Origin: Candidatus Giovannonibacteria bacterium
GTDB lineage: Bacteria > Patescibacteriota > Minisyncoccia > UBA11713 > 2-01-FULL-45-33
Length of the DNA: 64,000 nt
Direction of reading: 5' to 3'
Assembly (NCBI GenBank): GCA_016432405.1
Contig: CP066687.1
Location: forward strand, 219,040 to 283,039
The notes beneath the pieces were generated by a model. That model saw only the letters and a program-made list of their open reading frames with translations. It was not told the origin of the DNA and ran no database searches. A program made the translations under genes and the position numbers. Of this stretch, positions 5,399 to 46,788 are shown piece after piece. Each line of letters begins with the position of its first letter. The stretch's first letter is position 1.

Positions 5399-5399
5399 A

Positions 5400-8967: not shown

Positions 8968-8997
8968 TAAGCGCGGCGGAGGTTGTATAATAAAGCC

Positions 8998-27112: not shown

Positions 27113-27120
27113 TGACTATA

Positions 27121-27149
27121 TTATAACCTATTGCATTTAAATTGGTTTT
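27121..27149 (+). promoter_or_regulatory. Candidate sigma70-like promoter for the 27198 gene, in a divergent intergenic region
   Basis: TTGCAT, a 17-nt spacer, then TATACT. GGAGGG RBS lies 7 nt before the ATG at 27198. Confidence 0.35.
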
Positions 27150-27197
27150 AGTATATACTCTACGTTCAGATGCCCAAAACACAGAGGAGGGCTGAAG

Positions 27198-29788: not shown

Positions 29789-30608
29789 CGCAATATAAAT
29801 TCACGAATTCGCCGAAATTTGTGCCATCGGCGGATTTGGGTATGAATCTTGCGTAGTCGGCGTCACTTGTCGCCGGACTTAATTTTGACAAGCCCTGTTT
29901 TGTGATGGCGAAAATTTGGAAGCCGAAGGACTCAATGAAATTTAAAAAATTTAACGGCGTGTTTCCGGCCGCTCGAACCCACGCGGGGGCGAATTCAATG
30001 ATTAAGGCCAGATTTTTGTTTTCTGAAAGTATTTTTTTCATACCTTGAAGAGCCGCGTACTCGCCACCTTCTATGTCCATTTTTATAATATCCACCTTAT
30101 TTACGTCGTTTTTTTGCAGGAATGAATCTAGGTTGGCTGCCCGGACGCTTATTTTTGTTTTTTTAAAATCCAGCGGTACGTTGGGCAACACACTGCCCAC
30201 GCCGCTTTTTTCATCGTAGTGGTAAAAATCAATCTGACCGGTTTTGTCGGATATGGCAAGCCGGTATGATTTTATGTTTTTCAGCCGCCCGATATTTTTT
30301 TGCAGCAGGATAAAATTTTCCGGGTCTGCCTCAAAAGCGTAAACTGTTCCGCTGCCCCCAACTAATTCCGAAGCAATCCGGGCGTAATAGCCGATATGCG
30401 CTCCGACGTCAATTATTGTCATTCCGGGCTTTACGATTTTTTTAAAAAGAGAAATTGTTTCCGGCTCGTAGAGGTCAAAAAGCATGTCCAGTTTCCAGCG
30501 CCTGATATAATTTTTCGGAAAGTGGTAGCCCACGGAAAAAGCATAAACATCAACCAAGGCGTCAAACAGCTTATGCAAAAACAGCGCTCTATATATCTTT
30601 CTTAGCAT
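29772..30608 (-). CDS. FkbM family methyltransferase
   Basis: IIDVGAHIGYY and IKMDIEGGE are FkbM hallmarks; 278 aa. Confidence 0.65.
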   Translation of the reverse strand: MLRKIYRALFLHKLFDALVDVYAFSVGYHFPKNYIRRWKLDMLFDLYEPETISLFKKIVKPGMTIIDVGAHIGYYARIASELVGGSGTVYAFEADPENFILLQKNIGRLKNIKSYRLAISDKTGQIDFYHYDEKSGVGSVLPNVPLDFKKTKISVRAANLDSFLQKNDVNKVDIIKMDIEGGEYAALQGMKKILSENKNLALIIEFAPAWVRAAGNTPLNFLNFIESFGFQIFAITKQGLSKLSPATSDADYARFIPKSADGTNFGEFVNLYCVKPKI

Positions 30609-32100
30609 ACGATTTAATTTTTTTTGCCAAGAGATCGGCCAAGGGCTCCAGGACGGCCCGCTTTTTTCCCAAATCGGCTTCGTGCTCCCAGATATATGAC
30701 AGGTCCAGCGGAGCGGCGTCTTCCAACATTCCTTGAATGTACGCTAAAAGCTCTTTCTCATCAAAATTAAACCGCCGGAGCTGGTCTTCTACGATATATG
30801 GCAGCATATCTATCTGCTCGCATTTTTTTACCATGGATATGGCGTTGTAAAACTGGTCGCCGAATGTGATGACCGGTTTTCCCAGAAAAAGCGCTTCCCA
30901 GCCCGCCGTGCTTGTGATGGTTAGCACAAGTTTTGCTTTCGGCAATATCTCAAAGCTTGTTATTGACGGGTCCAGCAGTTTGACGTTCGGTATTTTTTTG
31001 AGCTCCTTATAATATGAGCGCGGCCGGAAAGGCACCATTTGCGGATGTTCTTTGATGTAGAGTTTAAAATGAACCGGCAAAGAGCGCGCGATTTGCCGGA
31101 CCAGCGTCAGCTGGTTGGCGTGGAACGGCGCGTGGAGGAGCGTGGAAATTTCCGGCTCCATCTGCAGGGTGTAATAAGCAAAATCCACATCCGGGTTAAA
31201 AGCATCATATAGGTCTTCCACGCCGATGAGGTTTCTTATTTTGCGTTTGGCGCGGTCATAAAGAGAATACAGGGGATTAATGTAGGTATAATCGCTTCTA
31301 TCAATTTTAGCGGCATAGTCGTAAACCTCTTTAGAATAAACGCGCACGAATCTTACAAAATTTTTTGGTTTTAAAAAATTAAAGTGGCTTGCTCTCTTTA
31401 CGGCCAGCTTTTTAATGTCCACCCCTTCATAGTAAGGATGCGGCGCGCTTCTGAAATCGCGCAGAAAATTGGAAGCTTTCTCCAGCCGCTTGAAATCGGT
31501 GCCCCCGGCCATAATCTCTTTTGCTATTTCCTCCACCTCCGTAAATCGGTCGTATCTCTTACTGATTATGGTTTTGTTTTTTGTGTATCCCGGCAGAATC
31601 GCTATCGGCTGAATTCCTTTTTTCACGGCTATCTCGTGCAAAAGATATCCTCCCATGCCGCCGAGCACGGAGAAGACAAGCGCGTCCGGTTTTTCTTTGT
31701 CCAAAAATTCAATAATCGCTTTGGCCCTTACTTGAAGGATGCGCATCATCTCTTCGTGAGTATAGGGCGGAGCGGCGTACGGATACTCGCGCACCAGCTG
31801 GTTAAACATTACGACCCTGTCAACGGCTATGTACGGCCATAGATTTGGAATCCCGTAGGCGCGCTCCAGCCAATTTAAATACGCCAAATCAAGCGGCTCC
31901 GTTTTGTACCGCTTATGAATCTCCTCGTCAAAAATTAAAGAGCTGTATTTAATCTCTTTTTGGTTCGCCAAAAAATCATGGCTCGTCCTAAGCGAAGTAT
32001 AGCCGCAAAATTCGGTTATGCCGTATTTTTCCTTTAGCGTGATTGCAAGGCAATGCGCGATATAAGCGAAGCGGCGCTGGGCCAAAAAGCAAATTTTCAT
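30589..32100 (-). CDS. Capsule polysaccharide biosynthesis protein family (KpsS/KpsC/LpsZ-like, Capsule_synth)
   Basis: 503 aa soluble protein. YTLQMEPEIS resembles the family's conserved LQvxxDs region. LFLGKPVITFG resembles the GT-B donor site. Confidence 0.45.
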   Translation of the reverse strand: MKICFLAQRRFAYIAHCLAITLKEKYGITEFCGYTSLRTSHDFLANQKEIKYSSLIFDEEIHKRYKTEPLDLAYLNWLERAYGIPNLWPYIAVDRVVMFNQLVREYPYAAPPYTHEEMMRILQVRAKAIIEFLDKEKPDALVFSVLGGMGGYLLHEIAVKKGIQPIAILPGYTKNKTIISKRYDRFTEVEEIAKEIMAGGTDFKRLEKASNFLRDFRSAPHPYYEGVDIKKLAVKRASHFNFLKPKNFVRFVRVYSKEVYDYAAKIDRSDYTYINPLYSLYDRAKRKIRNLIGVEDLYDAFNPDVDFAYYTLQMEPEISTLLHAPFHANQLTLVRQIARSLPVHFKLYIKEHPQMVPFRPRSYYKELKKIPNVKLLDPSITSFEILPKAKLVLTITSTAGWEALFLGKPVITFGDQFYNAISMVKKCEQIDMLPYIVEDQLRRFNFDEKELLAYIQGMLEDAAPLDLSYIWEHEADLGKKRAVLEPLADLLAKKIKSYAKKDI

Positions 32101-32155: not shown

Positions 32156-32707
32156 ATGGCGATTCAAGAAATTTTTGAGCGGATAAAATTCTGGCGGACG
32201 GCTGACAGGATCGGGCCTGATATTCCATGGACTCATTGGAAACTGCATTTTAATTCCACGATGCGCGCGTTTTGTAAGAAGAAGTTCAGGCATTTTGACG
32301 CGACCGCGGAATTGCGCCCCGGCTCTTATTTTATCTGCCCTTCCAAAATCAGTATTGGCAAAGGCGTTATTGTCCGGCCAGGCAGTTTTTTGGCCGCCAA
32401 TCCAAAAGACGGAGAGCATGGGATTACTATAGAAGACGAAGTGCTTTTGGGGCCCGGGGTTCACATGTATACAACCGACCACGAATTTAAAAATCCGGAC
32501 GTCCCTATTTGTTATCAGGACTATAAGCCATCCAAGCCGATAGTTGTAAAGCGAGGGGCGTGGATTGGCGCCAACGTCGTCATTTTGGCTGGGGTTACCA
32601 TAGGAGAAAACAGCGTAATTGGCGCGGGCAGCGTGGTGAGTAAAGATATCCAGCCGCGCGTCGTCGCCGCCGGAAGCCCGGCAAGAGTCGTGCGCTCGCT
32701 TTCATGA
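32156..32707 (+). CDS. Hexapeptide-repeat O-/N-acetyltransferase (maltose/galactoside acetyltransferase-like)
   Basis: IGANVVILAGVTIGENSVIGAGSVV hexapeptides; 183 aa. Confidence 0.6.
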   Translation: MAIQEIFERIKFWRTADRIGPDIPWTHWKLHFNSTMRAFCKKKFRHFDATAELRPGSYFICPSKISIGKGVIVRPGSFLAANPKDGEHGITIEDEVLLGPGVHMYTTDHEFKNPDVPICYQDYKPSKPIVVKRGAWIGANVVILAGVTIGENSVIGAGSVVSKDIQPRVVAAGSPARVVRSLS

Positions 32708-32710
32708 ATT

Positions 32711-33469
32711 ATGAAAAATATCCGCATCATACCGCGGCTGGACATAAAAGGGCCGAATGTTGTAAAGCCGGTGCATACGGAAGCGCTGCGCGTTGTGGGC
32801 GACCCGAAAGAATCGGCTATACGTTATCACAAAGAGGGCGCGGACGAGCTGATTTACTTGGACATCGTTGCAAGTTTATATCAGAGGAATCTTGATTTTG
32901 ATTTATTAAAATCCGTAACCGAAAATATTTTCATACCGGTAACCGTCGGCGGCGGCATCCGGACGATTCATGACATAAATAACGCTCTGCGTTCGGGAGC
33001 GGATAAAGTCGCGATTAACACTTACGCTGTCCGCCACCCGGAATTTTTAAGCGAGGCGGCAAAAGAATTCGGCTCTCAATGTATTGTGCTTTACATTGAA
33101 GCAAAAAAACAGCCCAACGGCGCTTATGAGGCGTACACAGATGGCGGAAGGGAGCATTCTGGGCTTGATGCCGTAGAATGGGCAAGACGCGGTATTGAGC
33201 TTGGCGTCGGCGAGATTTTGGTGACATCGGTTGACCGCGACGGAACCAGACGGGGGTATGATTTGGATTTAATCCGACGAATCAGCGCCTTCTCGCCGGT
33301 TCCGGTTATCGCGCACGGCGGCGCTGGGGATTTGGAATCTTTGGACAAAGTTATTATGGATGGGAAAGCAGATGCCATTTCTGCATCCTCAATTTTTCAT
33401 TACGGAGATTTTAAGATAGGAGATGTTAAAAATTATCTAAAAGCAAAAAATATAAATGTCCGAACCTAA
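32711..33469 (+). CDS. HisF-like cyclase subunit of the glycan amidotransferase complex (WbuZ-like imidazole glycerol phosphate synthase paralogue)
   Basis: IIPRLDIKG...VVK and VTVGGGIRT...VDRDGT are HisF motifs. It sits beside a HisH-like gene and a PP-loop amidotransferase. Confidence 0.7.
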   Translation: MKNIRIIPRLDIKGPNVVKPVHTEALRVVGDPKESAIRYHKEGADELIYLDIVASLYQRNLDFDLLKSVTENIFIPVTVGGGIRTIHDINNALRSGADKVAINTYAVRHPEFLSEAAKEFGSQCIVLYIEAKKQPNGAYEAYTDGGREHSGLDAVEWARRGIELGVGEILVTSVDRDGTRRGYDLDLIRRISAFSPVPVIAHGGAGDLESLDKVIMDGKADAISASSIFHYGDFKIGDVKNYLKAKNINVRT

Positions 33470-34064
33470 AATAACAATTATTGATTACGGTGTTGGAAAT
33501 CTGCATAGTCTGCGGCGGGCATTTAAGTTTTTTGAAATTGATGCGGCGATTTCTGAAGACGCGGATGAAATTTTAAACTCGGATGCCGTAGTTTTGCCCG
33601 GGGTCGGTTCTTTTGAGGCGGGAATGAGAGGCCTTAAGGTTCGCGGGCTCGTTGATGCCGTGAAAGAATTTGCTGTCAGCAACAAGCCGATGCTTGGCAT
33701 ATGTTTGGGCGCGCAGATTTTGCTTTCAGAAGGGCATGAGTTCGGGGTTTTTGAAGGGCTGGACATAATTCCTGGCAAAGTTACGCGTTTCCCGGAGCTT
33801 GCCGGCGGGGAGAAAATACCGCATATCGGATGGAATAGAGTCAGCTCGCCCGGCGGAGACGCGTGGAACAAAGATTTTTATTTCGTACATTCTTATATTT
33901 TGCGGCCGGAAAAAAGGGAGCACATTTTCGGGCTTACAACTTACGGCGGGCAGGAATTTTGCTCGGTTGTGAAAAAAGGCAACATTTACGGGACGCAGTT
34001 CCATCCGGAGCGCAGCGGCGATGCCGGGCTTGAGATAATTAAAAATTTCATTAAGATCGCATGA
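33456..34064 (+). CDS. HisH-like glutamine amidotransferase subunit (WbuY-like)
   Basis: IIDYGVGNLHS...LPGVGSF...GICLGAQIL...HSY...QFHPE; the class I GATase triad is present. Confidence 0.7.
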   Translation: MSEPKITIIDYGVGNLHSLRRAFKFFEIDAAISEDADEILNSDAVVLPGVGSFEAGMRGLKVRGLVDAVKEFAVSNKPMLGICLGAQILLSEGHEFGVFEGLDIIPGKVTRFPELAGGEKIPHIGWNRVSSPGGDAWNKDFYFVHSYILRPEKREHIFGLTTYGGQEFCSVVKKGNIYGTQFHPERSGDAGLEIIKNFIKIA

Positions 34065-35335
34065 TTTCAAAAGTTAAGAACACGCAAGTCAAATACGGTT
34101 TGCCGCAAGAGGTTAAGTTTTGTAAAAAGTGCGTAATTTCCAACCAGCGGCCGAATTCAGCAATTGAATTCGCGCACACAAGCGACACTCGCAAAGCCAC
34201 GATTAACTTTGATGCTGAAGGAGTTTGTGATGCGTGCCGCTTTGCCAAAATAAAAAAAACTCAAATTGACTGGGCCGAACGTGAACGGCAGTTGGCGGCA
34301 TTGTGCGGTAGATACCGCAAAAATAACGGAGAATACGACTGCATCGTTCCGGGGTCCGGGGGCAAAGATAGTTTTTACGCCGCCCATATTTTGAAATATA
34401 AATACGGCATGCACCCGTTGACGGTGACTTGGGCGCCGCATCTTTATACCGATTGGGGGTGGAAAAATTTTCAGGCGTGGATTCACGCCGGGTTTGACAA
34501 TTACTTGCATACGCCGAACGGCAATGTGCATCGCTTATTAACCCGCCTTGCTCTTGAAAAACTTTTTCATCCCTTCCAGCCGTTTATTTTGGGGCAAAAA
34601 TCCCTCCCGCCAAAATTAGCCGTATCTTTTAATATCCCCTTGGTTTTTTACGGAGAAAATGAAGCAGAATACGGCAACCCAATTGCGGATATGTCCACTG
34701 CCAAACGCGACCGGTCTTATTTCACGGCGAAAGATCAATCCAAAATTTATTTAGGCGGCGTATCCGTAGCGGATCTTAAACAGCGCTACGATATTTCAGA
34801 TAACGATCTTCAGCAGTATTTCCCCGCCGATCCGGCAAGAATGGAAAAAATCGCTTTGGAGGTACATTATCTGGGATATTATTTAAAGTGGCATCCGCAA
34901 TCCTGTTATTATTACGCGGTGGAACACGGTGGCTTTCAGGCCGCCCCGGAACGCAGCCCGGGGACATACGGAAAATATACCAGCATTGATGATAAAATGG
35001 ATGACTTGAATTTTTACACAATGTTCATAAAATTCGGCATTGGGCGCGCGACTTGGGATGCGGCGCAGGAAATAAGATCGGGCGATATAACGCGCGATGA
35101 AGGGGTATCGCTTGTGAGAAGATTTGACGGAGAATACCCCGCAAGATTTGAGGACGAACTTTTTCAGTATTTAAGCATTACGAAAAAGGACTTTTCGCCA
35201 AAGATTGTTAAAATGTTTGATTATCCTGCGATGAACAAAAAATATTTTATGAAATTAGCCGACGAATTTAGGTCGCCGCATTTATGGGAGCGTCTGCCGA
35301 ACGAAGAGTGGCGATTGAAACGCCAAGTCAGTTAA
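34061..35335 (+). CDS. N-acetyl sugar amidotransferase (WbuX/PseA-like PP-loop ATP pyrophosphatase)
   Basis: N-terminal zinc ribbon CKKC...CDAC; PP-loop CIVPGSGGKDS; 424 aa. Confidence 0.65.
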   Translation: MISKVKNTQVKYGLPQEVKFCKKCVISNQRPNSAIEFAHTSDTRKATINFDAEGVCDACRFAKIKKTQIDWAERERQLAALCGRYRKNNGEYDCIVPGSGGKDSFYAAHILKYKYGMHPLTVTWAPHLYTDWGWKNFQAWIHAGFDNYLHTPNGNVHRLLTRLALEKLFHPFQPFILGQKSLPPKLAVSFNIPLVFYGENEAEYGNPIADMSTAKRDRSYFTAKDQSKIYLGGVSVADLKQRYDISDNDLQQYFPADPARMEKIALEVHYLGYYLKWHPQSCYYYAVEHGGFQAAPERSPGTYGKYTSIDDKMDDLNFYTMFIKFGIGRATWDAAQEIRSGDITRDEGVSLVRRFDGEYPARFEDELFQYLSITKKDFSPKIVKMFDYPAMNKKYFMKLADEFRSPHLWERLPNEEWRLKRQVS

Positions 35336-35350
35336 AAAAGTTTTAAAAGC

Positions 35351-36076
35351 ATGAAAGAAAAACTTTTGGCCATTATTCCCGCAAGAGGGGGGTCTAAACG
35401 CATTCCCAATAAAAACATCAGGAATTTTTTTGGCAAACCTTTGATTGCGCATACGATTTTGCAGGCAAAAGAAAATTCTTTTATTGACAGGGTGGTTGTG
35501 GACACGGATTCCCAAAAAATTGCGGCGATTGCGCGAAGATGCGGAGCGGAGGTGCCGTTTTTGCGCCCCAAGCGCTTGGCTGCAGACAAAGCCAGCGTCA
35601 ATGATTCGGCCGTTTATTTTCTAAAGAGATTAAAAAAAGAAGAAGGATACGAACCGGAATATGTAATGTTTTTGCACACAACCTCGCCGCTTCGCGAACA
35701 AAAGGACATTCATGAATGCTGGGAATTTATGAAAAAAAGCGGCGCCACAACCGTTCTTACCGTGTGCCCCACGCATCCGCGCCTTTATTATCTGGGCGCG
35801 AAAAATAAAATCATTTTGGCTAACAGCCCCGGAGACAAGCTGCCGTCTAATGTCCAGCAATGGCGCAAGGCGTACATTTTAAACGGCTGTTTCGTGTATA
35901 TTGTAAAAACATCCGCGTTGCTTAAAGAAAAAGACATTTTTACCAGCGATACAAGAGCCGTGGTTTGTGACAGGTGGCGGTCGGTTGATTTAGATAATCC
36001 CGAAGATTGGGTTTTGGCGGAATTGCTCTACAAAAATCGGAAAAAACTGGGTAAGCAAATTAAAAATTTTAAATAA
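35351..36076 (+). CDS. Acylneuraminate/nonulosonate cytidylyltransferase (NeuA/PseF/LegF family)
   Basis: LAIIPARGGSKRIPNKN is the CTP_transf_3 signature; 241 aa. Confidence 0.7.
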   Translation: MKEKLLAIIPARGGSKRIPNKNIRNFFGKPLIAHTILQAKENSFIDRVVVDTDSQKIAAIARRCGAEVPFLRPKRLAADKASVNDSAVYFLKRLKKEEGYEPEYVMFLHTTSPLREQKDIHECWEFMKKSGATTVLTVCPTHPRLYYLGAKNKIILANSPGDKLPSNVQQWRKAYILNGCFVYIVKTSALLKEKDIFTSDTRAVVCDRWRSVDLDNPEDWVLAELLYKNRKKLGKQIKNFK

Positions 36077-36083
36077 ATTTTCT

Positions 36084-36989
36084 ATGAAAATCGGCTTAAT
36101 CGGATTCGGTTCAATAGGACAGCGGCATTATAACAATTTAGTTAAGCGTACAAAAAATGTCATTGTGTTTTCTAGAAGGGACGATGTCAATTTGCCGCGT
36201 CAGGTTAAAAATTGGCGCGAATTTAAAAAGTGCGGTCCGTATGACGGCATTATTATCGCGAACGAAACTTCTAAACATGTTGTGACAATAAAAAAATGCA
36301 TTGCTCTATCCGCCGGCTGGCGGACCAAAGCGCTTTTTATAGAGAAACCGCTATCGCATAATTTAAAAAATCTGAATTCGCTCGGTCGGCTTTTGCTGAA
36401 GAATCGGATAAGCGCTTTTGTTGGATACTGCTTTCACTTTTTCGGGCCATTTATTAAAATTAAAAAAATTATCAAGAGCGGCAAACTGGGCCGAATTTAT
36501 TACTTGCGCGCGTCGGTGGGGCAGGACCTGAAAGAGTGGCGGCCGGGGCGCGATTATCGCAAAATTTATTCTGCGAGAAAAAATCTTGGCGGAGGGGTTT
36601 TGCTGGATTTAGTGCACGATATTAATTATCCCGCATGGCTTTTGGACGATGTTTTAATCCCGCAACGTTCTTTGGTCAAAAAGATATCTGATTTAAAAAT
36701 AAATACGGAGGATTTGGCGGAAAGCGTTTTTGTCGGCAAAAAGACTGGGGTAATCGTGTCCGTGCACCAGGATTATTTAAGAATTCCCGGCAGACGGTCC
36801 CTGGAAATAGCGGGCTCCAAGGGTAGTTTAATATGGAATTCGTCGGACGCCGAAGACCGCGGTAAGATGTATCAAAGAGAAATTAATTTTTTTATCGGTT
36901 TGATAAAAGGCGGCAAGTATTTTTCCAATTGGGATGAAGCCGTTTGGGATGTTAAAAACATAGAATATTTGAAAAAACATGGCGGATAA
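36084..36989 (+). CDS. Gfo/Idh/MocA family oxidoreductase
   Basis: KIGLIGFGSIGQRH...FIEKPLS. Confidence 0.6.
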   Translation: MKIGLIGFGSIGQRHYNNLVKRTKNVIVFSRRDDVNLPRQVKNWREFKKCGPYDGIIIANETSKHVVTIKKCIALSAGWRTKALFIEKPLSHNLKNLNSLGRLLLKNRISAFVGYCFHFFGPFIKIKKIIKSGKLGRIYYLRASVGQDLKEWRPGRDYRKIYSARKNLGGGVLLDLVHDINYPAWLLDDVLIPQRSLVKKISDLKINTEDLAESVFVGKKTGVIVSVHQDYLRIPGRRSLEIAGSKGSLIWNSSDAEDRGKMYQREINFFIGLIKGGKYFSNWDEAVWDVKNIEYLKKHGG

Positions 36990-37971
36990 GCTTACATTTT
37001 TGCAAATTGGGCTTGGGTCAATGGGTAAGCGGCGGGTGCGCAATCTTTTTGCCAACGGCGAGCAGAATGTTGTCGGCCTTGATTTTTCGGCGGAAAGGAG
37101 AAAAGAAGCGGAAGAAAAATACGGCATTAAAACATTTGATAATTTAAATAAAATTCAGGTTGAAAACATTGATGCGGTGAGCATCTCCACGCCCCCAGAC
37201 AAGCACGGGGATTACATCCGCTGGGCGCTTGCCAATAAAAAACATTTTTTTGTTGAGCTCGCGACGACAGACGACGGTTATGAAGAAATCCGCCGGCTGG
37301 CGGATAAAAATTCGGGCATTGTTATGGCGCCCTCCTGCTCATTTCGTTTTTTTCTCCCGATTAAAATGGTGAAAAAGTTTGTTGACAGCGGGCGCATCGG
37401 GAAAGTTTTGGCTTTTCACCATCATGCGGGCCAATATTTGCCGGAATGGCATCCGTGGGAAGATTACCGCCAAATTTATTTTGCCAAAAAAGAAACCGGC
37501 GCTTTCCGCACGATGTTTTTATTTGAACTTAGCTGGCTGAATTGGCTTTTCGGGCATCAGGCCAACGTCGTCTTCGGTTTTACGGATAAAATTTCGGACC
37601 TGGAGTTGGAAATGGGCGCCAAAGATATTACTTGGGCTTACTTAAAATATCAAAATAAAATTTTAGGCAGTCTGTTGATTGATGTCATTTCGCGCAAGCC
37701 ATTCCGGACGCTGCGTGTTTTGGGAAGCGATGGGGTGCTGGAATGGGAGTGGCTTGAGAATGTTATTAAAATTTACGATGCTAAAACAAAATTAACCGAT
37801 AATATTGATGTTCCGAAAGGCAACTCTGCAACCGGCTATTTGACCGCCGAGGATATGTATAACGACGAAATGAAAGCATTTGTTGACGCTATCTACGGCC
37901 GCGCGCCTTATCCTTATACTTTTGAAGAAGACTTGCGAAATTTACGGACTCTATATAAACTTGAGGAATAA
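36979..37971 (+). CDS. Gfo/Idh/MocA family oxidoreductase (second copy)
   Basis: FLQIGLGSMGKRR...FVELATT; 330 aa. Confidence 0.55.
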   Translation: MADKLTFLQIGLGSMGKRRVRNLFANGEQNVVGLDFSAERRKEAEEKYGIKTFDNLNKIQVENIDAVSISTPPDKHGDYIRWALANKKHFFVELATTDDGYEEIRRLADKNSGIVMAPSCSFRFFLPIKMVKKFVDSGRIGKVLAFHHHAGQYLPEWHPWEDYRQIYFAKKETGAFRTMFLFELSWLNWLFGHQANVVFGFTDKISDLELEMGAKDITWAYLKYQNKILGSLLIDVISRKPFRTLRVLGSDGVLEWEWLENVIKIYDAKTKLTDNIDVPKGNSATGYLTAEDMYNDEMKAFVDAIYGRAPYPYTFEEDLRNLRTLYKLEE

Positions 37972-37973
37972 AT

Positions 37974-38720
37974 ATGAGTACGCAAAACCCGTTTAATAAA
38001 AAAATTGTTCGAGAGCACGATAAGTTATATTTAAGCGAGAATCGCAAACTTAAAGTTAAAGAGAAGTTTAAGTCAATAATACGGATTGCGGATCGTCATT
38101 TGCGGAAACTTACGCGCCCTGAAATATTGGATGTCGGCTGCGCGACCGGCGACTTTCTCCACTATCTGCGCGCGCGCTATCCCAATGCTTCGCTTACCGG
38201 ATTGGATATTATGCCCGCGCTTTTGAAACTGGCAAAACGCGAGGTGCCGCAGGCAAGTTATGTGCGCGGCGATATTTATACGGGAAGAGGACTGCCCAAG
38301 AGTAAATTTGACGCGGTATTTCTTCTGGCCGTGCATAGCATATTTGATGATGTTGGTTCTTGGTTAGATAATTTACTTCGATTGGTAAAACCCAATGGCC
38401 ATATATTTGTCGATGGGCTTTTCAACCCCGAGGATGTTGATGTGGTTATGCGCGTGCGTTATGCAAAGCCGGGTTCGCGCTATCAGCGCGGATGGAATAT
38501 GTTTTCGCAGAAAACAGTGCTTGAACATTTGCGCAAACGAGGCGCGAAGGGCGCCTTTCATCGCTTCGTTATAGGAATCGATATCCCGCGGCATAAGGAC
38601 GACCCCCTGCGATCATGGACTTTTAAGCTTGAAAACGGCGAACGCGCTATCATCAACGGAACGCAAATACTCCACCAGTTCTACTTTTTAGAAATTACTC
38701 TCGGCAAAAATGATTCTTAA
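37974..38720 (+). CDS. Class I SAM-dependent methyltransferase
   Basis: ILDVGCATGDF is motif I; VKPNGHIFV is a later motif. Confidence 0.65.
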   Translation: MSTQNPFNKKIVREHDKLYLSENRKLKVKEKFKSIIRIADRHLRKLTRPEILDVGCATGDFLHYLRARYPNASLTGLDIMPALLKLAKREVPQASYVRGDIYTGRGLPKSKFDAVFLLAVHSIFDDVGSWLDNLLRLVKPNGHIFVDGLFNPEDVDVVMRVRYAKPGSRYQRGWNMFSQKTVLEHLRKRGAKGAFHRFVIGIDIPRHKDDPLRSWTFKLENGERAIINGTQILHQFYFLEITLGKNDS

Positions 38721-39942
38721 TAAAGGCAGGATTAAGAAAACAGAAAGTGAGACCCTCAAAACTTTTCGGGAAGAAATTCCTTCGCAATACTTTTCCCATA
38801 AAAACGAAGCCGCGTACAGGGATTATGTAAAGAACGCCGAATTTGTTTATAGAGAGCTGTTCAAATTCCCTCCGCAAATGTTTCGCGGCGCGGAACTTAT
38901 AGACTTCGGGGCGGGAACGGGGGAAAACACCGTGTATCTTGCAAGCTGGGGCGCCAAGTGCACGCTTGTTGAAATGAATTCCAAAGCGCAGAGCATCTCA
39001 AAAGAGGTGTTTAAACAATACGCGCGGAATTTTGACGACCATACTTTTATTTGTTCATCGATTTTTGATTATAGCCCGGAGAGCGGCAAGCTGTATGACA
39101 TTGTTCATTGCAGGGCCGTGCTCTCGCACACCGCAGCAAAGGAAATTGCTTTCCAAAAAATCGCGAGGATGGTCAAACCGGGCGGATTTCTGATTTTCGG
39201 AGACCCAAATAAGGCCGGGGGATTCCAGAATATGCTGCAGCGCTTCGCTGTCTATCATTTTGCTTCAACGCCCGACGAAATGGTAGAGGTTTGCGAATTT
39301 CTTTTTAAAGAAGACATTGACCGCAGTGAGAAGTTTATTCCTCGCACGCGCCGCGCCATCATTTTTGACAGATGGGTAATTCAATCCCAGGACGACCCTT
39401 CTGTTGCGGAAGTTACTGGCTGGATAAAGAAGAGCGGCATGCGTTTATATTCGTCATACCCCTCGTTCACGATGCCCCTTTTGGGGGACTCGCTGCATCA
39501 CCAGCCAAAGTTTGATGCTGCATCTGTATCTAATCTTGCTAGTCTTGGCGCGCTTACCGAACTGGTTTGGATGCTGCAGACAGAATCGGATAGCAAGGTC
39601 TTTCCCAAATTCATGAGCGGGCTGAATCCGCTTGCGGCGGCGCTTGCGAATCTTACATCATATGTGGCGAACTTCAATAAAAATACAAAGCTCGATGTTG
39701 GCCGTTTTCAAGAATTATCGCGCGCGCTGGCAAATTCTTCCGACGCGCTGAATTTTCTCCAGCCCCTTCGCGAGAAGCTTCTGCGAGCTCTTGGGGAAGC
39801 CGACGAGTTTGTTAGTTTGGTTCATACATCCGACTTAAATAAACTGCGCAAGTTTATAGAAAAAACAGAGGTTCTTTTTAAGGGCGCTTGCGGCTTGCGC
39901 CATGCGGATTTCATCGCTTACAAACCAATAGAGAATCGTTAA
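38710..39942 (+). CDS. SAM-dependent methyltransferase domain protein with a C-terminal extension
   Basis: LIDFGAGTGEN is motif I; VKPGGFLIF is a later motif; 410 aa. Confidence 0.55.
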   Translation: MILNKGRIKKTESETLKTFREEIPSQYFSHKNEAAYRDYVKNAEFVYRELFKFPPQMFRGAELIDFGAGTGENTVYLASWGAKCTLVEMNSKAQSISKEVFKQYARNFDDHTFICSSIFDYSPESGKLYDIVHCRAVLSHTAAKEIAFQKIARMVKPGGFLIFGDPNKAGGFQNMLQRFAVYHFASTPDEMVEVCEFLFKEDIDRSEKFIPRTRRAIIFDRWVIQSQDDPSVAEVTGWIKKSGMRLYSSYPSFTMPLLGDSLHHQPKFDAASVSNLASLGALTELVWMLQTESDSKVFPKFMSGLNPLAAALANLTSYVANFNKNTKLDVGRFQELSRALANSSDALNFLQPLREKLLRALGEADEFVSLVHTSDLNKLRKFIEKTEVLFKGACGLRHADFIAYKPIENR

Positions 39943-39950
39943 AAAACAAT

Positions 39951-41084
39951 ATGAAAATCAACAGTCATAACGAATGGGACAAACTTCGGGAGATTATTGT
40001 TGGCCGCGGCGAAGGCCAGGCGCCACTTTTGTTTACAGAGCCCGGCCCGATTTCGGAGACTCTTTTGGAAAAAGCCAATCGTTTGGCGCGCGAAGCCTCG
40101 CCCAAATGGCTAATTGACGAAATAAATGAAGATTTAGAGGGATTAAGCGACGCGCTTAAATCCTTCGGCGTTAAGGTACATCGGCCGGAGACGTCGCATA
40201 TAAATAATTTCTTTGCAACGCCTTACTTCCGGGCGGCCGGAGATTATTGCTACAACATGAGAGACCTTCATCTTGTTGTTGGAAATACTGTTATTGAATC
40301 TCCATCTCAAGAAAAACATAGATATTTTGAGGCATCTGGTCTCTATGATATTTGGTATGAATATTTCAAAGAAGGATTTCGCTGGATTGCCGGGCCGAAG
40401 CCGAAACTTGCCGGCAATCCCATGATTACTTATTATGATGGCGAAAAAGATGAGTACGAAGACGGGCAGAAATTTATAAAATTAACCGAAAATGAAATTC
40501 TTTTTGAGGCAGCCAATACCGTGAGAATGGGCAAAGACTTGCTTTATCTGGTATCCAGATCAGGCAATAATCTTGGCGCAAAATGGTTGCAGAGCGTATT
40601 GGGTGATGAATATCGCGTGCACACTACTGAAAAAATTTACCGCTCCAGCCATATTGACTCAACTGTTTTGGCTTTGCGTCCTGGTCTTGTTTTGCTTAAT
40701 GCGACAAGGGTGTCGCCGGAGACTTGCCCTCCGATTTTAGATTCGTGGGAGAAAATTTATTTTACTGATATTGTTCCGGCGCCGGAGTCAACTGTAAAAT
40801 TTCACAAAGAGGTTCGTAAAAAGGTTCATGCCGAGCTTGCGTCTTTGGGCGTTCAATCAAGCCTTGATTCTATAGCATCGGATTGGATTGGCATGAATAT
40901 TCTTTCGGTGGATCCAAGCACCGTAATCGTTGACGAGCGGCAGGTTTCTTTAATCAATCTTTTAAAAAAACACAAAATTACTCCGGTCCCAATCCGCTTC
41001 AGACATTCTTATTACATGGGCGGCATCCATTGCAGCACACTGGACACGGTCAGAGAAAGCAAGCTGGAGAGCTATTTCAGTTAA
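39951..41084 (+). CDS. Amidinotransferase superfamily enzyme (guanidino-group modifying enzyme fold; glycine/inosamine amidinotransferase-like)
   Basis: C-terminal GGIHCSTLD is the catalytic Cys motif of the amidinotransferase/ADI/DDAH fold; about 378 aa. I chose the ATG at 39951, after the upstream stop at 39942. Confidence 0.5.
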   Translation: MKINSHNEWDKLREIIVGRGEGQAPLLFTEPGPISETLLEKANRLAREASPKWLIDEINEDLEGLSDALKSFGVKVHRPETSHINNFFATPYFRAAGDYCYNMRDLHLVVGNTVIESPSQEKHRYFEASGLYDIWYEYFKEGFRWIAGPKPKLAGNPMITYYDGEKDEYEDGQKFIKLTENEILFEAANTVRMGKDLLYLVSRSGNNLGAKWLQSVLGDEYRVHTTEKIYRSSHIDSTVLALRPGLVLLNATRVSPETCPPILDSWEKIYFTDIVPAPESTVKFHKEVRKKVHAELASLGVQSSLDSIASDWIGMNILSVDPSTVIVDERQVSLINLLKKHKITPVPIRFRHSYYMGGIHCSTLDTVRESKLESYFS

Positions 41085-41089
41085 AATCT

Positions 41090-42034
41090 ATGGCATATCC
41101 AAAAAAAATTCCGCACGGGATTATGTTTCATCACTTTTATAATGAAGCGCATCCCCGGGGGCAGGGCGCCATTTCCGCCGACGATTTAGACAACATATTA
41201 CGCTATGTTGGCATTGAAAGAATTTTGCCGCCGCTTGAGTGGTTAAAACGATTGAAAGAAAGCAAATTAAAAGACGGGGATGTTTGCCTGACTTTTGATG
41301 ACGCCCTTTTATGCCAGACGGAAATCGCCTTGCCTGTTTTAGAGAAATACGGTCTTAGGGCTTTTTGGTTTGTTTACTCCGGCGTTTTTGAAGGAAGACT
41401 GGAGAATCTGGAGCTCTACAGATTTTTCCGGGTAAAACATTTTGATAACATAGATGATTTTTATCAATTATTTTTAAAAAAAGTTTCTGATTTGGGAATG
41501 ACTGTACAAGTAAATTCGGAGTTTGAAAAAAAGATGCTGGCGGACTTCCCGTTTTACTCCGTAAATGACGTCCGATTTCGTTTTTTGCGCGACAAAGTGT
41601 TGGGAAAAGAGGATTACGAAAAAATAATGAATACTATGTTAAAAGATTATGGCTTGGACAAAAAAGAAATGTCGAAAAGTTTATGGATGTCGAACAGAAA
41701 TTTAAAATATCTTAGCGATAACGGACATATTGTTGGATTGCATTCTTATTCTCATCCCACATCATTTGCGGATTTGCCTTTTAAAGCGCAACTTGACGAG
41801 TATAAAAAAAATTACTCGCACATAAAACGAGTCACCGGCCAAAACCCGGTTGCCGTAGCGCATCCGGTGAATTCCTACAACGCGGACACGCTGAAGATTT
41901 TGGAAGAGCTAGGCATTATTTGCGGTTTTCGTTCAAATATGTTTCCAAAAACAAAAATGGGGGCGCTTAACGCCAACGCTTTTGAAATGGCCAGAGAAGA
42001 CCACGCCAATATTGCAAGGATGATGGAAACGTGA
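41090..42034 (+). CDS. Polysaccharide deacetylase (NodB homology, CE4-like)
   Basis: VCLTFDDAL is the NodB motif 1; HSYSHP is a His motif. I moved the start to the ATG at 41090. Confidence 0.55.
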   Translation: MAYPKKIPHGIMFHHFYNEAHPRGQGAISADDLDNILRYVGIERILPPLEWLKRLKESKLKDGDVCLTFDDALLCQTEIALPVLEKYGLRAFWFVYSGVFEGRLENLELYRFFRVKHFDNIDDFYQLFLKKVSDLGMTVQVNSEFEKKMLADFPFYSVNDVRFRFLRDKVLGKEDYEKIMNTMLKDYGLDKKEMSKSLWMSNRNLKYLSDNGHIVGLHSYSHPTSFADLPFKAQLDEYKKNYSHIKRVTGQNPVAVAHPVNSYNADTLKILEELGIICGFRSNMFPKTKMGALNANAFEMAREDHANIARMMET

Positions 42035-43256: not shown

Positions 43257-43276
43257 CTCATTACTGCGCTCTTTTT
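43248..43276. terminator. Bidirectional rho-independent terminator between convergent genes
   Basis: GCGCAGTAA-CTCA-TTACTGCGC perfect 9-bp stem followed by TCTTTTTAT. Confidence 0.6.
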
Positions 43277-44069
43277 ATCCAATATACGGATTTAGAAATT
43301 TTGAGAAGTCGCGATTTTTTAATTTTCCCAAAACCGTTTCCGGCGCGGGCAAATTATCCAGATAATCTCGCGCCACCTCATCGGTGAAATCCGCGCCTCT
43401 AGTGTATTTTATCTGCAAAGATTTATCCTGCGGCACCGGCGTCATTTTATCAATCTTGCCGTTTTTGATGTTTTCAATTAAACCTTTGTGGGCGGCTTTT
43501 ACCGCTCTCATGCCTAGCAGGAGTGGGTCGCCGATCGGCTCGGGGAACGCGTGAAAAAGCATATCGCCGGAATCCAAACCGCGGCTTAAAAGATGAATTG
43601 TTGCGCCAACATAATCAAAGTTTCCATGATAGGCCGCCCAAAAATTGCAGGAATTCCCGCGGTAATAAGGCGAGGTTCCAATATGGATGTTGTACGTTCT
43701 ATTCTTGACCAAAAACTCAACCAGCGGGCCTTTTATATAGCTTGAGCCAAAGACAATGTATTTATCCGATTTTAAGGCATCCGACAAAGTCTCCATGTTC
43801 AGCATGCTTAAATCGCCGGCTTTTATTGACAGCACCCGCACATTTTTAGGCAGAAATCTTGGCGCGCCGAAAATTTGCCTCTCCGGTTCAATAACCGCGC
43901 TCTTAAAATATTTCTGCATTATTTCCGTTTTGTTGTAAAAATCAGCCACCTCGCCGGTGAAAACGGTAAAGGATTCTATTACCGCGTAAACCTCCTCGGC
44001 AATTTTGGACAAATCTTCTATTAAAGAGATGTGGCGCGCCTGATTGCTTGTGAATATGGTTATTTTCAT
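43275..44069 (-). CDS. Formyltransferase-domain protein (Formyl_trans_N; sugar N-formyltransferase candidate)
   Basis: YNIHIGTSPYYRGNSCNFWAAYHG matches the hxSLLPxxRG formyltransferase motif; 264 aa. Confidence 0.5.
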   Translation of the reverse strand: MKITIFTSNQARHISLIEDLSKIAEEVYAVIESFTVFTGEVADFYNKTEIMQKYFKSAVIEPERQIFGAPRFLPKNVRVLSIKAGDLSMLNMETLSDALKSDKYIVFGSSYIKGPLVEFLVKNRTYNIHIGTSPYYRGNSCNFWAAYHGNFDYVGATIHLLSRGLDSGDMLFHAFPEPIGDPLLLGMRAVKAAHKGLIENIKNGKIDKMTPVPQDKSLQIKYTRGADFTDEVARDYLDNLPAPETVLGKLKNRDFSKFLNPYIG

Positions 44070-45271: not shown

Positions 45272-45273
45272 AA

Positions 45274-46335: not shown

Positions 46336-46349
46336 TTAAGGAGGACGAT

Positions 46350-46772: not shown

Positions 46773-46788
46773 TCTGGGGGTTTTATAT

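Follow-up and report, generated by a model that had tools for sequence, protein, structure and literature searches.

A HisF/HisH-like pair and an N-acetyl sugar amidotransferase form a predicted acetamidino-forming module in a nonulosonic acid operon of Candidatus Giovannonibacteria

The Legionella pneumophila LPS-locus protein ORF28 is a homologue of Campylobacter jejuni PtmG, the enzyme that turns CMP-Leg5Ac7Ac into CMP-Leg5Am7Ac; PtmH and Legionella ORF8 N-methylate Leg5Am7Ac (PMC3766260). The Legionella O-antigen residue has been reported as Leg5Am7Ac. The L. pneumophila enzyme has been crystallised (PDB 8WEX), its authors inferred its ATP dependence, and a preprint suggests that the amidotransferase may prefer nucleotide sugars. 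In the same N-acetyl sugar amidotransferase (NASAT) family, E. coli O145 WbuXYZ and P. aeruginosa WbpG amidate hexosamine derivatives (FucNAc and ManNAc3NAcA, respectively) rather than nonulosonates, and the zinc-site tetracysteine motif CxxC...[GN]xCxxC has been defined (PMC10607449). NCBIfam names WbuZ and AglZ as HisF paralogues of glycosyl amidation. The Methanococcus maripaludis AglXYZ system likewise amidates a hexosamine derivative and not a nonulosonate. We know of no assay of any reconstituted NASAT-HisH-HisF complex.

Layout of the trio and identity of its proteins

The window analysed here is a 64-kb stretch of DNA from a CPR bacterium, Candidatus Giovannonibacteria, and is in its entirety a glycan island. 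The host genome is small (651 kb). In the window's ORF list, the interval 32711..35335 is filled exactly by three + strand ORFs, given here with their immediate neighbours.

30589..32100, - strand: candidate nonulosonate transferase, divergent from the operon (PF05159, 49.9 bits)
32156..32707, + strand: LacA/Maa-type hexapeptide O-acetyltransferase, the operon's first gene (NCBIfam and Pfam Hexapep)
32711..33469, + strand: HisF-like (beta/alpha)8 barrel, WbuZ/AglZ-type paralogue, predicted ammonia-channel subunit (252 aa; PF00977, 221 bits)
33456..34064, + strand: class-I glutaminase, HisH-like and of WbuY/AglY type, predicted to release ammonia from glutamine (202 aa; TIGR01855, PF00117)
34061..35335, + strand: NASAT (WbuX/WbpG/PtmG family), PP-loop ATP pyrophosphatase domain and zinc tetracysteine motif (424 aa; TIGR03573)
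35351..36076, + strand: CMP-nonulosonate cytidylyltransferase, NeuA/LegF type (PF02348, CTP_transf_3, 88.7 bits)

The HisF-like and HisH-like frames overlap by 14 nt and the HisH-like and NASAT frames by 4 nt, so the three genes are probably translationally coupled. The O-acetyltransferase gene stops 4 nt before the HisF-like gene, and 15 nt separate NASAT from the cytidylyltransferase, which indeed directly follows the trio as the first-pass annotation had it. The cytidylyltransferase scores 170.5 bits on the PseF model, below the cut-off of 205.7, and its best PDB matches are NeuA 9FTB (113 bits) and the N. meningitidis CMP-NeuAc synthetase (80 bits). The divergent gene product weakly matches (27.8 bits) the model of the BFO_1060 glycosyltransferase family, which is the Pse/Leg transferase family of T. 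forsythia (PMC5420450).

NASAT matches TIGR03573 (WbuX, N-acetyl sugar amidotransferase) with 389.2 bits (cut-off 203.2; E 2e-116). This is its sole NCBIfam match, and neither asparagine synthetase nor ExsB/QueC was matched at E<=1e-3. The PP-loop SGGKDS occupies residues 99-104 and aligns with the identical loop in 8WEX, and the translation contains the tetracysteine motif as C21-x2-C24 ... G54-V-C56-x2-C59. The protein is about 68% identical to the Legionella enzyme 8WEX over 414 residues (693 bits). It also has the 8WEX-like extra segment between its two CxxC pairs, a segment that, according to the 8WEX authors, WbuX, WbpG, and other family members lack. The protein thus is the WbuX/PseA-like amidotransferase with a zinc motif and SGGKDS that had been proposed, and not an AsnB or ExsB homologue. 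Its predicted function is the conversion of an acetamido to an acetamidino group with ATP.

NCBI annotation names the other two proteins HisF and HisH. If these names were right, the pair would be a genuine imidazole glycerol phosphate (IGP) synthase fortuitously located beside NASAT. Consistent with this, the HisH-like protein clearly passes the hisH model TIGR01855 (199.8 bits, cut-off 105.4), the HisF-like protein passes the hisF model TIGR00735 by 0.25 bits (294.8 against 294.55), and the latter retains D11, K19, and the phosphate-binding glycines. The HisF-like protein misses the TIGR03572 WbuZ cut-off (269.1 against 299.7 bits), a model that the first-pass annotation had proposed as a check, as well as that of AglZ/HisF2 (NF038364; 204.6 against 310 bits). 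Six other NASAT-linked HisFs also fall below both cut-offs, so this subgroup is outside the reach of the two models. In large free-living genomes, HisFs linked to a NASAT lie in the same ambiguous band (261-296 bits on hisF and 253-294 on WbuZ); for comparison, T. maritima HisF scores 355.8 bits on hisF versus 272 on WbuZ.

Against an IGP synthase, the HisF-like protein and 71 NASAT-linked paralogues split from four canonical HisFs in 200/200 neighbour-joining bootstraps, the canonical set being E. coli, T. maritima, P. aerophilum, and the reconstructed LUCA-HisF, with one of the four sequences entered by hand. Its identity to canonical HisFs is 37-55%. At catalytic position 130, the window protein and 68 of the 71 NASAT-linked homologues have Glu where T. 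maritima, P. aerophilum, and LUCA-HisF have Asp; of the canonical cyclase-site pair Asp11 and Asp130, the window protein keeps only D11. The HisF/HisH pair directly abuts NASAT in 66 of 72 loci, its reading frames overlap with NASAT, and the window ORFs scanned contain no other histidine-pathway gene. To our knowledge, CPR bacteria generally lack amino-acid biosynthesis, which also counts against an IGP synthase. We consider such an enzyme extremely improbable here. The 200/200 split, D130E, the narrow hisF pass, and the failure on WbuZ indicate that the public annotation probably misnames the HisF-like protein when it calls it a histidine enzyme. The earlier expectation that neither protein would group with bona fide histidine enzymes therefore holds for HisF, but is weak for HisH, whose split from canonical HisH appears in 77/200 bootstraps and is not robust. 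The HisH-like triad C83/H183/E185 is intact and aligns with that of T. maritima HisH, and the ammonia-gate residues R5, E46, K99, and E167 of the HisF-like protein are conserved. HisF active-site residues are strictly conserved and D130E is clade-wide, which may mean, though we think it unlikely, that the HisF-like subunit binds the nucleotide-sugar or joins catalysis instead of being a passive ammonia pipe.

Related loci and the nonulosonate genes

The comparison set has 80 species-level NASAT loci from many phyla, 49 of them with full 10-kb flanks. Within 10 kb of NASAT, these 49 loci contain HisF in 47, HisH in 46, a cytidylyltransferase in 47, NeuC in 48, NeuB in 46, and an aminotransferase in 46 cases. 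As NASAT relatives adjoin the same genes across these loci, the trio belongs to the usual gene set of legionaminic-type nonulosonic acid operons. Sugar operons of this kind with the same module occur in many bacterial phyla, which makes the present one ordinary. The counts for the cytidylyltransferase, NeuC, and NeuB also support the initial suggestion that an acetamidino-modified nonulosonic acid is likely. Homologues of the divergent transferase adjoin the NASAT clusters of three related loci (L007, L008, and L085).

In the window, the remaining nonulosonate genes form a second block at 44129..49889 on the same strand. It starts 8.8 kb downstream of the trio, close to the 9 kb first given.

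44129..45271, + strand: NeuC/LegG-type hydrolysing UDP-sugar 2-epimerase (TIGR03568 passed, 410.4 bits, cut-off 235.9)
45274..46335, + strand: NeuB/LegI-type nonulosonic acid synthase (TIGR03569 passed, 436.3 bits, cut-off 399.65)
46350..46772, + strand: short hexapeptide-repeat acetyltransferase, candidate 4-N-acetyltransferase (140 aa; NeuD/PglB/VioB subfamily)
46789..47934, + strand: DegT-family sugar 4-aminotransferase (below both PseC and LegC cut-offs)
47912..48868, + strand: extended SDR, GalE-like, between the aminotransferase and the dehydratase (PDB 6VO6, 173 bits)
48852..49889, + strand: soluble UDP-GlcNAc dehydratase of the Polysacc_synt_2 type without the catalytic Tyr (STDK...L-x3-K)

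The profile-match E-values of the trio and the nonulosonate genes are far beyond chance. NeuB falls below the PseI cut-off (305.7 against 340.25 bits); it scores a median of 284 bits with NASAT-linked NeuBs, whereas N. meningitidis NeuB and C. jejuni PseI give 204 and 181 bits, respectively. The acetyltransferase scores 64.5 bits on the NeuD/PglB/VioB subfamily model, matching only its C-terminal part. The aminotransferase misses the cut-offs of PseC (306.7 against 423.5 bits) and LegC (293.0 against 420 bits), its best PDB match is perosamine synthetase (293 bits; PglE ca. 195, PseC ca. 168), and it is 60-69% identical to its counterparts in L085 and L059. The SDR has a YxxxK motif and scores only 70.8 bits with Pal 6BWL.

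The dehydratase at 48852 had been described as PseB/LegB-like, a description that fails on both models. It scores 315.5 bits on PseB (cut-off 407.75) and 236.5 on FnlA; the LegB model yields 75.3 bits for this protein and 51.5 bits as a second score, with a cut-off of 475, which most related loci exceed with a true LegB of 520-545 bits. The catalytic Tyr position holds Leu in the window protein and Met in its counterparts from L059, L085, and L013, and the Tyr is also missing in PglF, WbpM, and FnlA-scoring homologues. By these scores the protein is neither PseB nor LegB, and it also lacks the catalytic Tyr of PseB. Among solved structures the protein matches Pen 6BWC (285 bits), FlaA1 (222 bits), CapE (212 bits), and PglF (172 bits). 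Pen belongs to the B. thuringiensis pseudaminic pathway, and PglF/WbpM are UDP-GlcNAc 4,6-dehydratases of the C5-retaining group (PMC8987622). Counting against a pseudaminic acid pathway, the PseB, PseC, PseI, and PseF equivalog cut-offs are all missed, and no ORF between 27990 and 53204 matches PseG. The legionaminic pathway runs through LegB/C/H/G/I/F or through PglFED plus NeuCBA; its LegB-type dehydratase and LegC-type aminotransferase are likewise matched by neither window protein.

Predicted reaction, sugar identity, and alternatives

It is highly likely, in our view, that the trio is a glutamine-dependent amidotransferase that acts on a 5,7-diacetamido-3,5,7,9-tetradeoxy-nonulosonic acid and turns one of its acetamido groups into an acetamidino group. 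Specifically, the HisH-like protein would hydrolyse glutamine via C83/H183/E185, the released ammonia would travel through the HisF-like barrel past the intact gate R5/E46/K99/E167, the NASAT PP-loop would use ATP to activate the amide oxygen, giving AMP and PPi, and the amidine would arise when ammonia takes the place of the activated oxygen. As substrate we consider most likely the CMP-activated legionaminic-type sugar of the same operon, which would be made by the dehydratase (48852), aminotransferase (46789), acetyltransferase (46350), NeuC (44129), NeuB (45274), and cytidylyltransferase (35351) in this order. Amidination would most likely take place at N5, the position modified in the Leg5Am7Ac of both Legionella and Campylobacter. 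The predicted product is a zwitterionic, net-neutral sugar with a positively charged acetamidino group on the cell surface. The gene assignments, motifs, clade placement, and recurrent gene neighbourhood are observations, from which the chemistry, its timing at the CMP level, the N5 site, and the stereochemistry are inferred.

For the configuration of the sugar, we favour a legionaminic-like reading, because NeuC and NeuB pass their models while PseI, PseB, PseC, and PseF fail and no PseG is present among the scanned ORFs, because the window NeuB scores higher with NASAT-cluster NeuBs than with solved Neu- or Pse-type synthases, because a true LegB occurs in most related loci, and because the nearest characterised NASAT comes from the Leg5Am7Ac producer Legionella. 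The first-pass proposal of a legionaminic-like route through NeuC instead of PseG thus stands as far as these enzymes go. It does not extend to stereochemistry: the front end is atypical, and with a dehydratase that is neither PseB nor LegB and an aminotransferase that is neither PseC nor LegC, C8 and C7 cannot be called and legionaminic stereochemistry is not established.

The same chemistry could act on a different 5,7-diamino-nonulosonate isomer of 8-epi-legionaminic, pseudaminic-like, or undescribed configuration, which we regard as possible but rather unlikely. This idea arises from the non-LegB, Tyr-less dehydratase and non-LegC aminotransferase with which the pathway begins; the former scores far higher on PseB and FnlA than on LegB and has Pen as its best solved relative (PMC8987622), and the latter reaches 350-588 bits with the aminotransferases of L059, L085, L042, and L013, compared with a median of 178 bits with those of the related loci, which are mostly of LegB type. 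The same front end recurs in L059, L085, and L013, and 8eLeg5Am7Ac occurs naturally in Aliivibrio salmonicida (PMC7371886). Arguing for legionaminic configuration instead are the Neu/Leg-type NeuC and NeuB, the closeness of NASAT to the Legionella enzyme, the Tyr-to-Met/Leu signature (TDK...M-x3-K) of the C5-retaining PglF/WbpM group (PMC8987622), and the report that Legionella NeuC/B/A turn a UDP-diNAcBac precursor into CMP-Leg5Ac7Ac (PMC3766260). Far less probable is that the trio amidates another N-acetyl sugar of the island, such as a FucNAc- or ManNAc3NAcA-type hexosamine, with the cytidylyltransferase adjacent by accident. WbuX (L-FucNAm) and WbpG (ManNAc3NAmA) do work in hexosamine pathways (PMC10607449), a preprint reports a possible acetimidoyl UDP-HexNAc, and the window contains many other sugar-modifying enzymes and several amino-sugar pathways that could in principle supply such a substrate. 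However, at least 46 of the 49 full-flank loci have their NASAT relative, with 67% identity or more, inside a NeuC/NeuB/cytidylyltransferase operon, the Legionella-type insert is reported absent from WbuX and WbpG, and neither an FnlB/FnlC-type nor a WbpA-E-type set is seen beside NASAT.

Returning to the acetamidino nonulosonate, candidate tailoring and export genes lie around and between the two blocks.

36084..36989 and 36979..37971, + strand: two tandem GFO/IDH/MocA oxidoreductases (PF01408, PF22725, PF02894)
37974..38720 and 38710..39942, + strand: two class-I SAM methyltransferases (Pfam methyltransferase domains)
41030..42034, + strand: polysaccharide deacetylase family protein, possible sugar N-deacetylation (PF01522, 63.8 bits)
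43275..44069, - strand: weak formyltransferase-like protein (PF00551, 25.0 bits, just below the cut-off of 26.1)
49886..51688, + strand: MsbA/PglK/HepA-like ABC exporter, possible flippase for a lipid-linked glycan (HepA, MsbA, and PglK models)

A GFO gene is directly beside the cytidylyltransferase in 22 of the 80 related loci, roughly a quarter. Among these loci, the methyltransferase pair recurs only in the sister Giovannonibacteria locus L007, which also encodes a 91% identical homologue of the formyltransferase-like protein. Judged from position, the methyltransferases are candidates for acetamidino N-methylation or sugar O-methylation. A deacetylase and formyltransferase pair has been reported in the Leg-like cluster of Ca. 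Kuenenia. The exporter scores 338.9 bits on HepA, 312.6 on MsbA, and 223.1 on PglK, none of which reaches its cut-off. The Tyr-less dehydratase and non-LegC aminotransferase occur in Giovannonibacteria, a Minisyncoccia (L059), a Peribacteria (L013), and a gammaproteobacterial MAG (L085). An unlikely, speculative reading is that they represent a variant pathway common to several CPR/Patescibacteria lineages, which would feed the usual NeuC/NeuB/cytidylyltransferase/NASAT back end and yield a heavily tailored, possibly new acetamidino nonulosonate stereoisomer displayed on the surface; the two oxidoreductases, two methyltransferases, deacetylase, and formyltransferase-like protein would be its Giovannonibacteria extension. 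If so, the tailored sugar on the surface of this ultra-small episymbiont might mediate host attachment.

Comparison with known systems

The closest known counterpart is the L. pneumophila NASAT (ORF28; 8WEX), which shares SGGKDS, the zinc tetracysteine motif, the extra segment, and ca. 68% identity with the window protein and is likewise associated with NeuC, NeuB, and NeuA-type genes. The window differs in that the HisF/HisH genes precede NASAT and the cytidylyltransferase directly follows, in that its dehydratase is soluble and Tyr-less with Leu at the catalytic position, and in its host, a CPR bacterium that is monoderm-like, has no LPS, and must therefore use another acceptor than Legionella. 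C. jejuni PtmG (Cj1324), which is proposed to act on CMP-Leg5Ac7Ac to give CMP-Leg5Am7Ac, shares its proposed reaction with the window NASAT, and the flagellin legionaminic locus provides optional N-methylation by the nearby methyltransferase PtmH (Cj1325/6) (PMC3766260; preprint); Campylobacter uses a GDP-GlcNAc route with LegB/LegC, whereas the window proteins fail both models. E. coli O145 WbuXYZ, P. aeruginosa WbpG, and M. maripaludis AglXYZ share the NASAT, HisH-like, and HisF-like combination and TIGR03573, although the window HisF-like protein reaches neither the WbuZ nor the AglZ cut-off. Finally, the window pair has the same fold, glutaminase triad, and ammonia-gate residues as IGP synthase HisFH, from which D130E, a separate clade, and a location in a sugar operon instead of one for histidine set the HisF-like protein apart.

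The amidotransferase trio and its closest characterised relative

Three plus-strand ORFs occupy the interval 32711..35335 exactly, with overlaps of 14 nt and 4 nt, and a cytidylyltransferase ORF follows after a gap of 15 nt:

32711..33469, plus strand, HisF-like protein (252 aa; PF00977)
33456..34064, plus strand, HisH-like protein (202 aa; TIGR01855, class-I GATase Pfam)
34061..35335, plus strand, N-acetyl sugar amidotransferase, NASAT (424 aa; TIGR03573)
35351..36076, cytidylyltransferase (241 aa; CTP_transf_3, PF02348)

In the NCBIfam and Pfam scans, the sole match of NASAT was TIGR03573 ("WbuX, N-acetyl sugar amidotransferase"; 389.2 bits against a cut-off of 203.2, E 2e-116), with no asparagine synthetase and no ExsB/QueC match. 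Its translation contains a tetracysteine zinc site, composed of C21xxC24 and G54-x-C56xxC59, and SGGKDS at residues 99-104. The HisH-like protein scores 199.8 bits on the TIGR01855 hisH model and has an intact C83/H183/E185 triad. The cytidylyltransferase matches PF02348 with 88.7 bits and the PseF model with 170.5, under the cut-off of 205.7, and its best relatives among solved structures are NeuA proteins. The first-pass annotation had described a HisF-like protein, a HisH-like protein and a zinc-ribbon PP-loop NASAT, directly followed by a NeuA/PseF-type cytidylyltransferase; this observation is confirmed in every detail.

Among solved structures, NASAT has one strong match, PDB 8WEX from L. 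pneumophila (693 bits, ~68% identity over 414 aligned residues). The 8WEX structure has a zinc-binding tetracysteine and a PP-loop at the base of a wide pocket, and its authors infer a chemistry converting ATP to AMP and PPi (PMC10607449). A segment of ~15 residues lies between its two CxxC pairs, which other NASATs, including WbuX and WbpG, lack (PMC10607449). The window NASAT aligns through this segment without a gap and therefore belongs to the Legionella-type subgroup, sharing with 8WEX a feature absent from WbuX and WbpG. Legionella ORF28 is a homologue of C. jejuni ptmG (Cj1324), whose product turns CMP-Leg5Ac7Ac into CMP-Leg5Am7Ac, and the acetimidoyl group is N-methylated by a separate methyltransferase, ORF8/PtmH (PMC3766260).

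The window NASAT is identical to an NCBI protein of a Candidatus Giovannonibacteria bacterium MAG, and the longest contig with it measures 651,549 bp. Its NCBI name is already "N-acetyl sugar amidotransferase", and its partners are named "imidazole glycerol phosphate synthase subunit HisF/HisH" (QQG42893.1, QQG42894.1). An annotated WbuXYZ-like locus was sought by blastn ("distant") in all complete genomes of E. coli, with 32711..36076 as the query, and there was no match.

Conserved neighbourhood and the HisF/HisH pair

We fetched 80 species-level loci encoding NASAT relatives of 67-95% identity; every window protein between 28598 and 53204 then served as a query against them. Their hosts are Proteobacteria, Nitrospirota, Cyanobacteria, Firmicutes, Elusimicrobia, Verrucomicrobia, several CPR lineages and others. 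Neighbours were counted in the 49 loci having the full 10 kb on either side.

Homologues of window genes in the 49 full-flank loci
HisF: 47
HisH: 46
Cytidylyltransferase: 47
NeuC: 48
NeuB: 46
DegT aminotransferase: 46

NASAT is immediately adjoined by the HisF/HisH pair in 66 of 72 loci. The common order is LegB - aminotransferase - NeuC - NeuB - ... - cytidylyltransferase - NASAT - HisF - HisH, with NASAT-HisF-HisH found in 57 loci. The CPR-type order is HisF - HisH - NASAT - cytidylyltransferase - GFO - NeuB - NeuC - aminotransferase - dehydratase, and HisH ends just ahead of NASAT in 14 loci. In loci of the common type the dehydratase is a true LegB, with 520-545 bits where the cut-off is 475. 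Thus, given these and the neighbour counts, the trio is a standard module of legionaminic-type operons, and its tie to nonulosonic acid, earlier read from adjacency in a single genome, holds well beyond it.

The HMM scores by themselves are ambiguous for the HisF-like protein. It passes hisF by 0.25 bits (294.8, cut-off 294.55) and fails WbuZ (269.1, cut-off 299.7) and AglZ/HisF2 (204.6, cut-off 310), so that of the two models proposed for checking the trio, TIGR03573 was passed and TIGR03572 was not. Six other HisFs encoded beside NASAT, including those of the large free-living Geotalea, Cohnella and Ramlibacter, fall into the same band (hisF 261-296, WbuZ 253-294). The T. maritima HisF, confirmed as bona fide by its hisF score, reaches 355.8 on hisF versus 271.6 on WbuZ. 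Linked HisFs score at or just below the hisF cut-off, so public pipelines call them histidine enzymes.

An alignment of 71 linked HisFs with canonical ones is more informative (T. maritima numbering). The ammonia-gate residues R5, E46, K99 and E167 are kept throughout the linked proteins, aside from two alignment gaps at R5, and there is next to no variation at D11, K19 or the phosphate-binding glycines. At position 130, the site of the second catalytic aspartate, the window protein and 68 of the 71 linked homologues have glutamate (D130E), whereas every canonical HisF examined has Asp. Neighbour-joining places the four canonical HisFs (E. coli, T. maritima, P. aerophilum and the reconstructed LUCA-HisF) apart from every one of the 72 linked sequences in 200/200 bootstraps; the nearest relatives of the window protein are those of L007 (a sister Giovannonibacteria locus), L008, L085 (a gammaproteobacterial MAG), L059 (Minisyncoccia) and L074. 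The corresponding HisH split is weak (77/200), and the case for HisH therefore consists of context and the intact triad. A grouping with histidine enzymes, which the first pass had named as refuting its reading, is contradicted for HisF by the bootstrap split. No other his genes occur among the scanned window ORFs, and CPR bacteria are generally known to lack amino-acid biosynthesis. We conclude that the pair would be the ammonia-generating and ammonia-channelling partner of NASAT, and its public "histidine" names are probably misleading. D130E, together with the strictly kept residues of the former cyclase site, raises the possibility that the HisF-like subunit may do more than conduct ammonia.

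The sequences themselves show which domains are present, the catalytic motifs and gate residues, the coupling within the operon and the conserved gene association; the steps of the mechanism come from family knowledge. HisH would hydrolyse glutamine, and the ammonia would move through the HisF-like barrel. NASAT would adenylate the acetamido oxygen, with ATP going to AMP and PPi, after which ammonia, taking the place of the activated oxygen, would form the amidine. The substrate is probably the CMP-sugar and the position probably N5, going by the PtmG/Legionella literature and the tight pairing with the cytidylyltransferase.

Upstream pathway and configuration of the sugar

NeuC (TIGR03568, 410 bits) and NeuB (TIGR03569, 436 bits) are encoded downstream on the same strand and pass their models; NeuB fails PseI (306). 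The DegT aminotransferase fails both PseC (307) and LegC (293), and PseG was not found among the ORFs from 27990 to 53204. Two further genes belong to this group:

46350-46772, same strand, hexapeptide acetyltransferase (140 aa), its match to the NeuD/PglB/VioB model being confined to the C-terminal hexapeptide region of that model
48852-49889, same strand, dehydratase (345 aa; PseB 315.5, FnlA 236.5, LegB 75.3)

With the end of NeuB only 15 nt ahead of it, the acetyltransferase cannot be longer. For the window NeuB, the median score with NeuBs of related clusters is 284 bits, compared with 204-208 for Neu-type and SpsE structures and 181 for C. jejuni PseI, which favours a Leg-type synthase.

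The SDR at 47912..48868 is not supported as a Pal partner of the Pen-like dehydratase: it scores 70.8 bits against Pal versus 173 against PDB 6VO6, which we take to be a C. jejuni GDP-heptose C4 dehydrogenase, and it is absent in L059 and L085.

The dehydratase, first described as PseB/LegB-like, keeps only part of that description. PseB is its best-scoring model and Pen (6BWC; PMC8987622) its best solved relative (285 bits, followed by FlaA1/PseB 222, CapE 212 and PglF 172), but LegB is remote. An identification as PseB was rejected, since the score is below the cut-off of 407.75 and the catalytic Tyr present in PseB and Pen is missing, the motif being STDK...L-G-V-S-K. The counterparts in L059, L085 and L013 (Peribacteria) have Met at this position:

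L059:18194-19189, CPR-type dehydratase, Met variant
L085:18261-19322, CPR-type dehydratase, Met variant
L013:5070-6167, CPR-type dehydratase, Met variant

All four Tyr-less proteins score ~306-315 bits on PseB, under its cut-off, and may be a subgroup of their own among the soluble UDP-GlcNAc dehydratases. TDK...M-x3-K is the signature of PglF and WbpM, both grouped among the C5-retaining UDP-GlcNAc 4,6-dehydratases (PMC8987622). Met is also present in the FnlA-scoring dehydratases of the NASAT loci L053, L070 and L079, and therefore the motif is not decisive between retaining and inverting chemistry. The aminotransferase is atypical too. Among solved structures it is closest to perosamine synthetase (293 bits; PglE ~195, PseC ~168), and it scores a median of 178 bits against those of related, mostly LegB-type, loci and 350-588 against its L059, L085, L042 and L013 counterparts. 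Taken together, two front ends supply one conserved back end.

In Legionella, NeuC, NeuB and NeuA lead from a UDP-diNAcBac precursor to CMP-Leg5Ac7Ac (PMC3766260). The legionaminic-acid-like route favoured in the first-pass annotation agrees with the passing NeuC and NeuB and with the lack of PseG among the ORFs scanned, but not with the dehydratase and aminotransferase, which fail the LegB and LegC models. The variant front end gives no prediction for the configuration at C7 and C8. A Legionella-like UDP route to legionaminic acid is the most likely reading, and another isomer is a less probable alternative.

Tailoring genes, the glycan island and known systems

The stretch from the cytidylyltransferase to NeuC encodes a pair of GFO/IDH/MocA oxidoreductases, a pair of SAM methyltransferases, a 377-aa protein with no family match, a polysaccharide deacetylase, a protein weakly resembling Glyphos_transf and, on the opposite strand, one weakly resembling formyltransferases. 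Three features of the neighbourhood are:

41030-42034, polysaccharide deacetylase, between the amidotransferase block and NeuC/NeuB
43275-44069, opposite strand, weak formyltransferase-like protein
30589..32100, divergent, candidate nonulosonate transferase (PF05159, 49.9 bits)

A GFO gene adjoins the cytidylyltransferase in about a quarter of related loci (22/80). The methyltransferases, the deacetylase and the 377-aa protein have homologues only in L007 among related loci, and the formyltransferase-like protein has one additional weak match in L085. That an acetimidoyl group can be N-methylated is known from PtmH and Legionella ORF8 (PMC3766260); roles of the tailoring genes, including candidate N-methylation, are inferred from position only. 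According to a recent preprint, a Leg-like cluster of Ca. Kuenenia contains a deacetylase and a formyltransferase, and its CMP-nonulosonates either have a free amine, are formylated or show a shift of +14 Da; the window resembles it in this gene pairing. The candidate transferase weakly matches the model of BFO_1060, of the T. forsythia Pse/Leg transferase family (PMC5420450), and has homologues beside the NASAT clusters of L007, L008 and L085. The dehydratase is followed by an MsbA/PglK-like ABC exporter. L001, a contig from another sample with an identical NASAT, encodes an FkbM methyltransferase of 268 aa and a PF05159 protein of 460 aa, both shorter than the same two genes in the window (29772-32100; 278 and 503 aa), which points to strain-level variation, or to a difference in the predicted starts, around the candidate transferase.

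By Pfam, the remainder of the window is of the same kind, so that sugar-nucleotide enzymes, glycosyltransferases, methyltransferases and exporters account for essentially all of the 64 kb; the window yielded no match in tRNA and Rfam scans. Other features of this island are:

1080-1745, nucleotidyltransferase
4412-5398, GHMP kinase
8983-9618, SIS-domain isomerase
10395-10940, HAD phosphatase
10924-11658, transaldolase-like protein
2440-4383, fusion of GFO/IDH/MocA and FAD-dependent oxidoreductase (647 aa)
15228-16985, fusion of SDR dehydratase and GT2 glycosyltransferase (585 aa)
21524-23173, fusion of UDP-glucose-dehydrogenase-like domains and SAM methyltransferase (549 aa)
24788-25894, minus strand, DegT aminotransferase
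25896-27554, minus strand, adjoining sugar C-methyltransferase (Methyltransf_13/14, zinc-binding domain)
61762-62406, minus strand, IS200-like Y1 transposase domain (PF01797, 28.8 bits), at the island edge

The first five genes are grouped together and look like a GDP-glycero-manno-heptose-type pathway, and the nonulosonate operon of the same window holds the SDR with 6VO6 as best solved relative. The DegT and C-methyltransferase pair suggests that a branched-chain amino sugar is made. Six ORFs (5358-7139, 7144-8967, 19786-21522, 55631-57085, 57072-58667, 59991-61736), 484-607 aa long, have no Pfam match at the thresholds used.

Once it has an acetamidino group, a nonulosonic acid is no longer negatively charged but zwitterionic and neutral overall, so that the charge and the antigenicity of the surface change; in Legionella the group is serotype-defining, and in Campylobacter it is of importance for flagellin glycans. 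The complete module in a Giovannonibacteria genome suggests that even ultra-small CPR bacteria devote genes to an elaborate surface decoration of the sialic-acid type. Probably misnamed HisF/HisH proteins of such clusters could inflate CPR metabolic reconstructions, and D130E would be a simple flag for NASAT-linked HisF paralogues. In full-text literature searches, we found no paper discussing nonulosonic acids in CPR or Patescibacteria bacteria. The module, its family, its enzymology and its role in Leg5Am7Ac biosynthesis are already known, and the GenBank name of NASAT is correct. What is new is modest: the CPR host, the Tyr-less dehydratase front end common to several CPR lineages, the D130E marker, and the likely histidine mis-annotation of NASAT-linked HisF paralogues.
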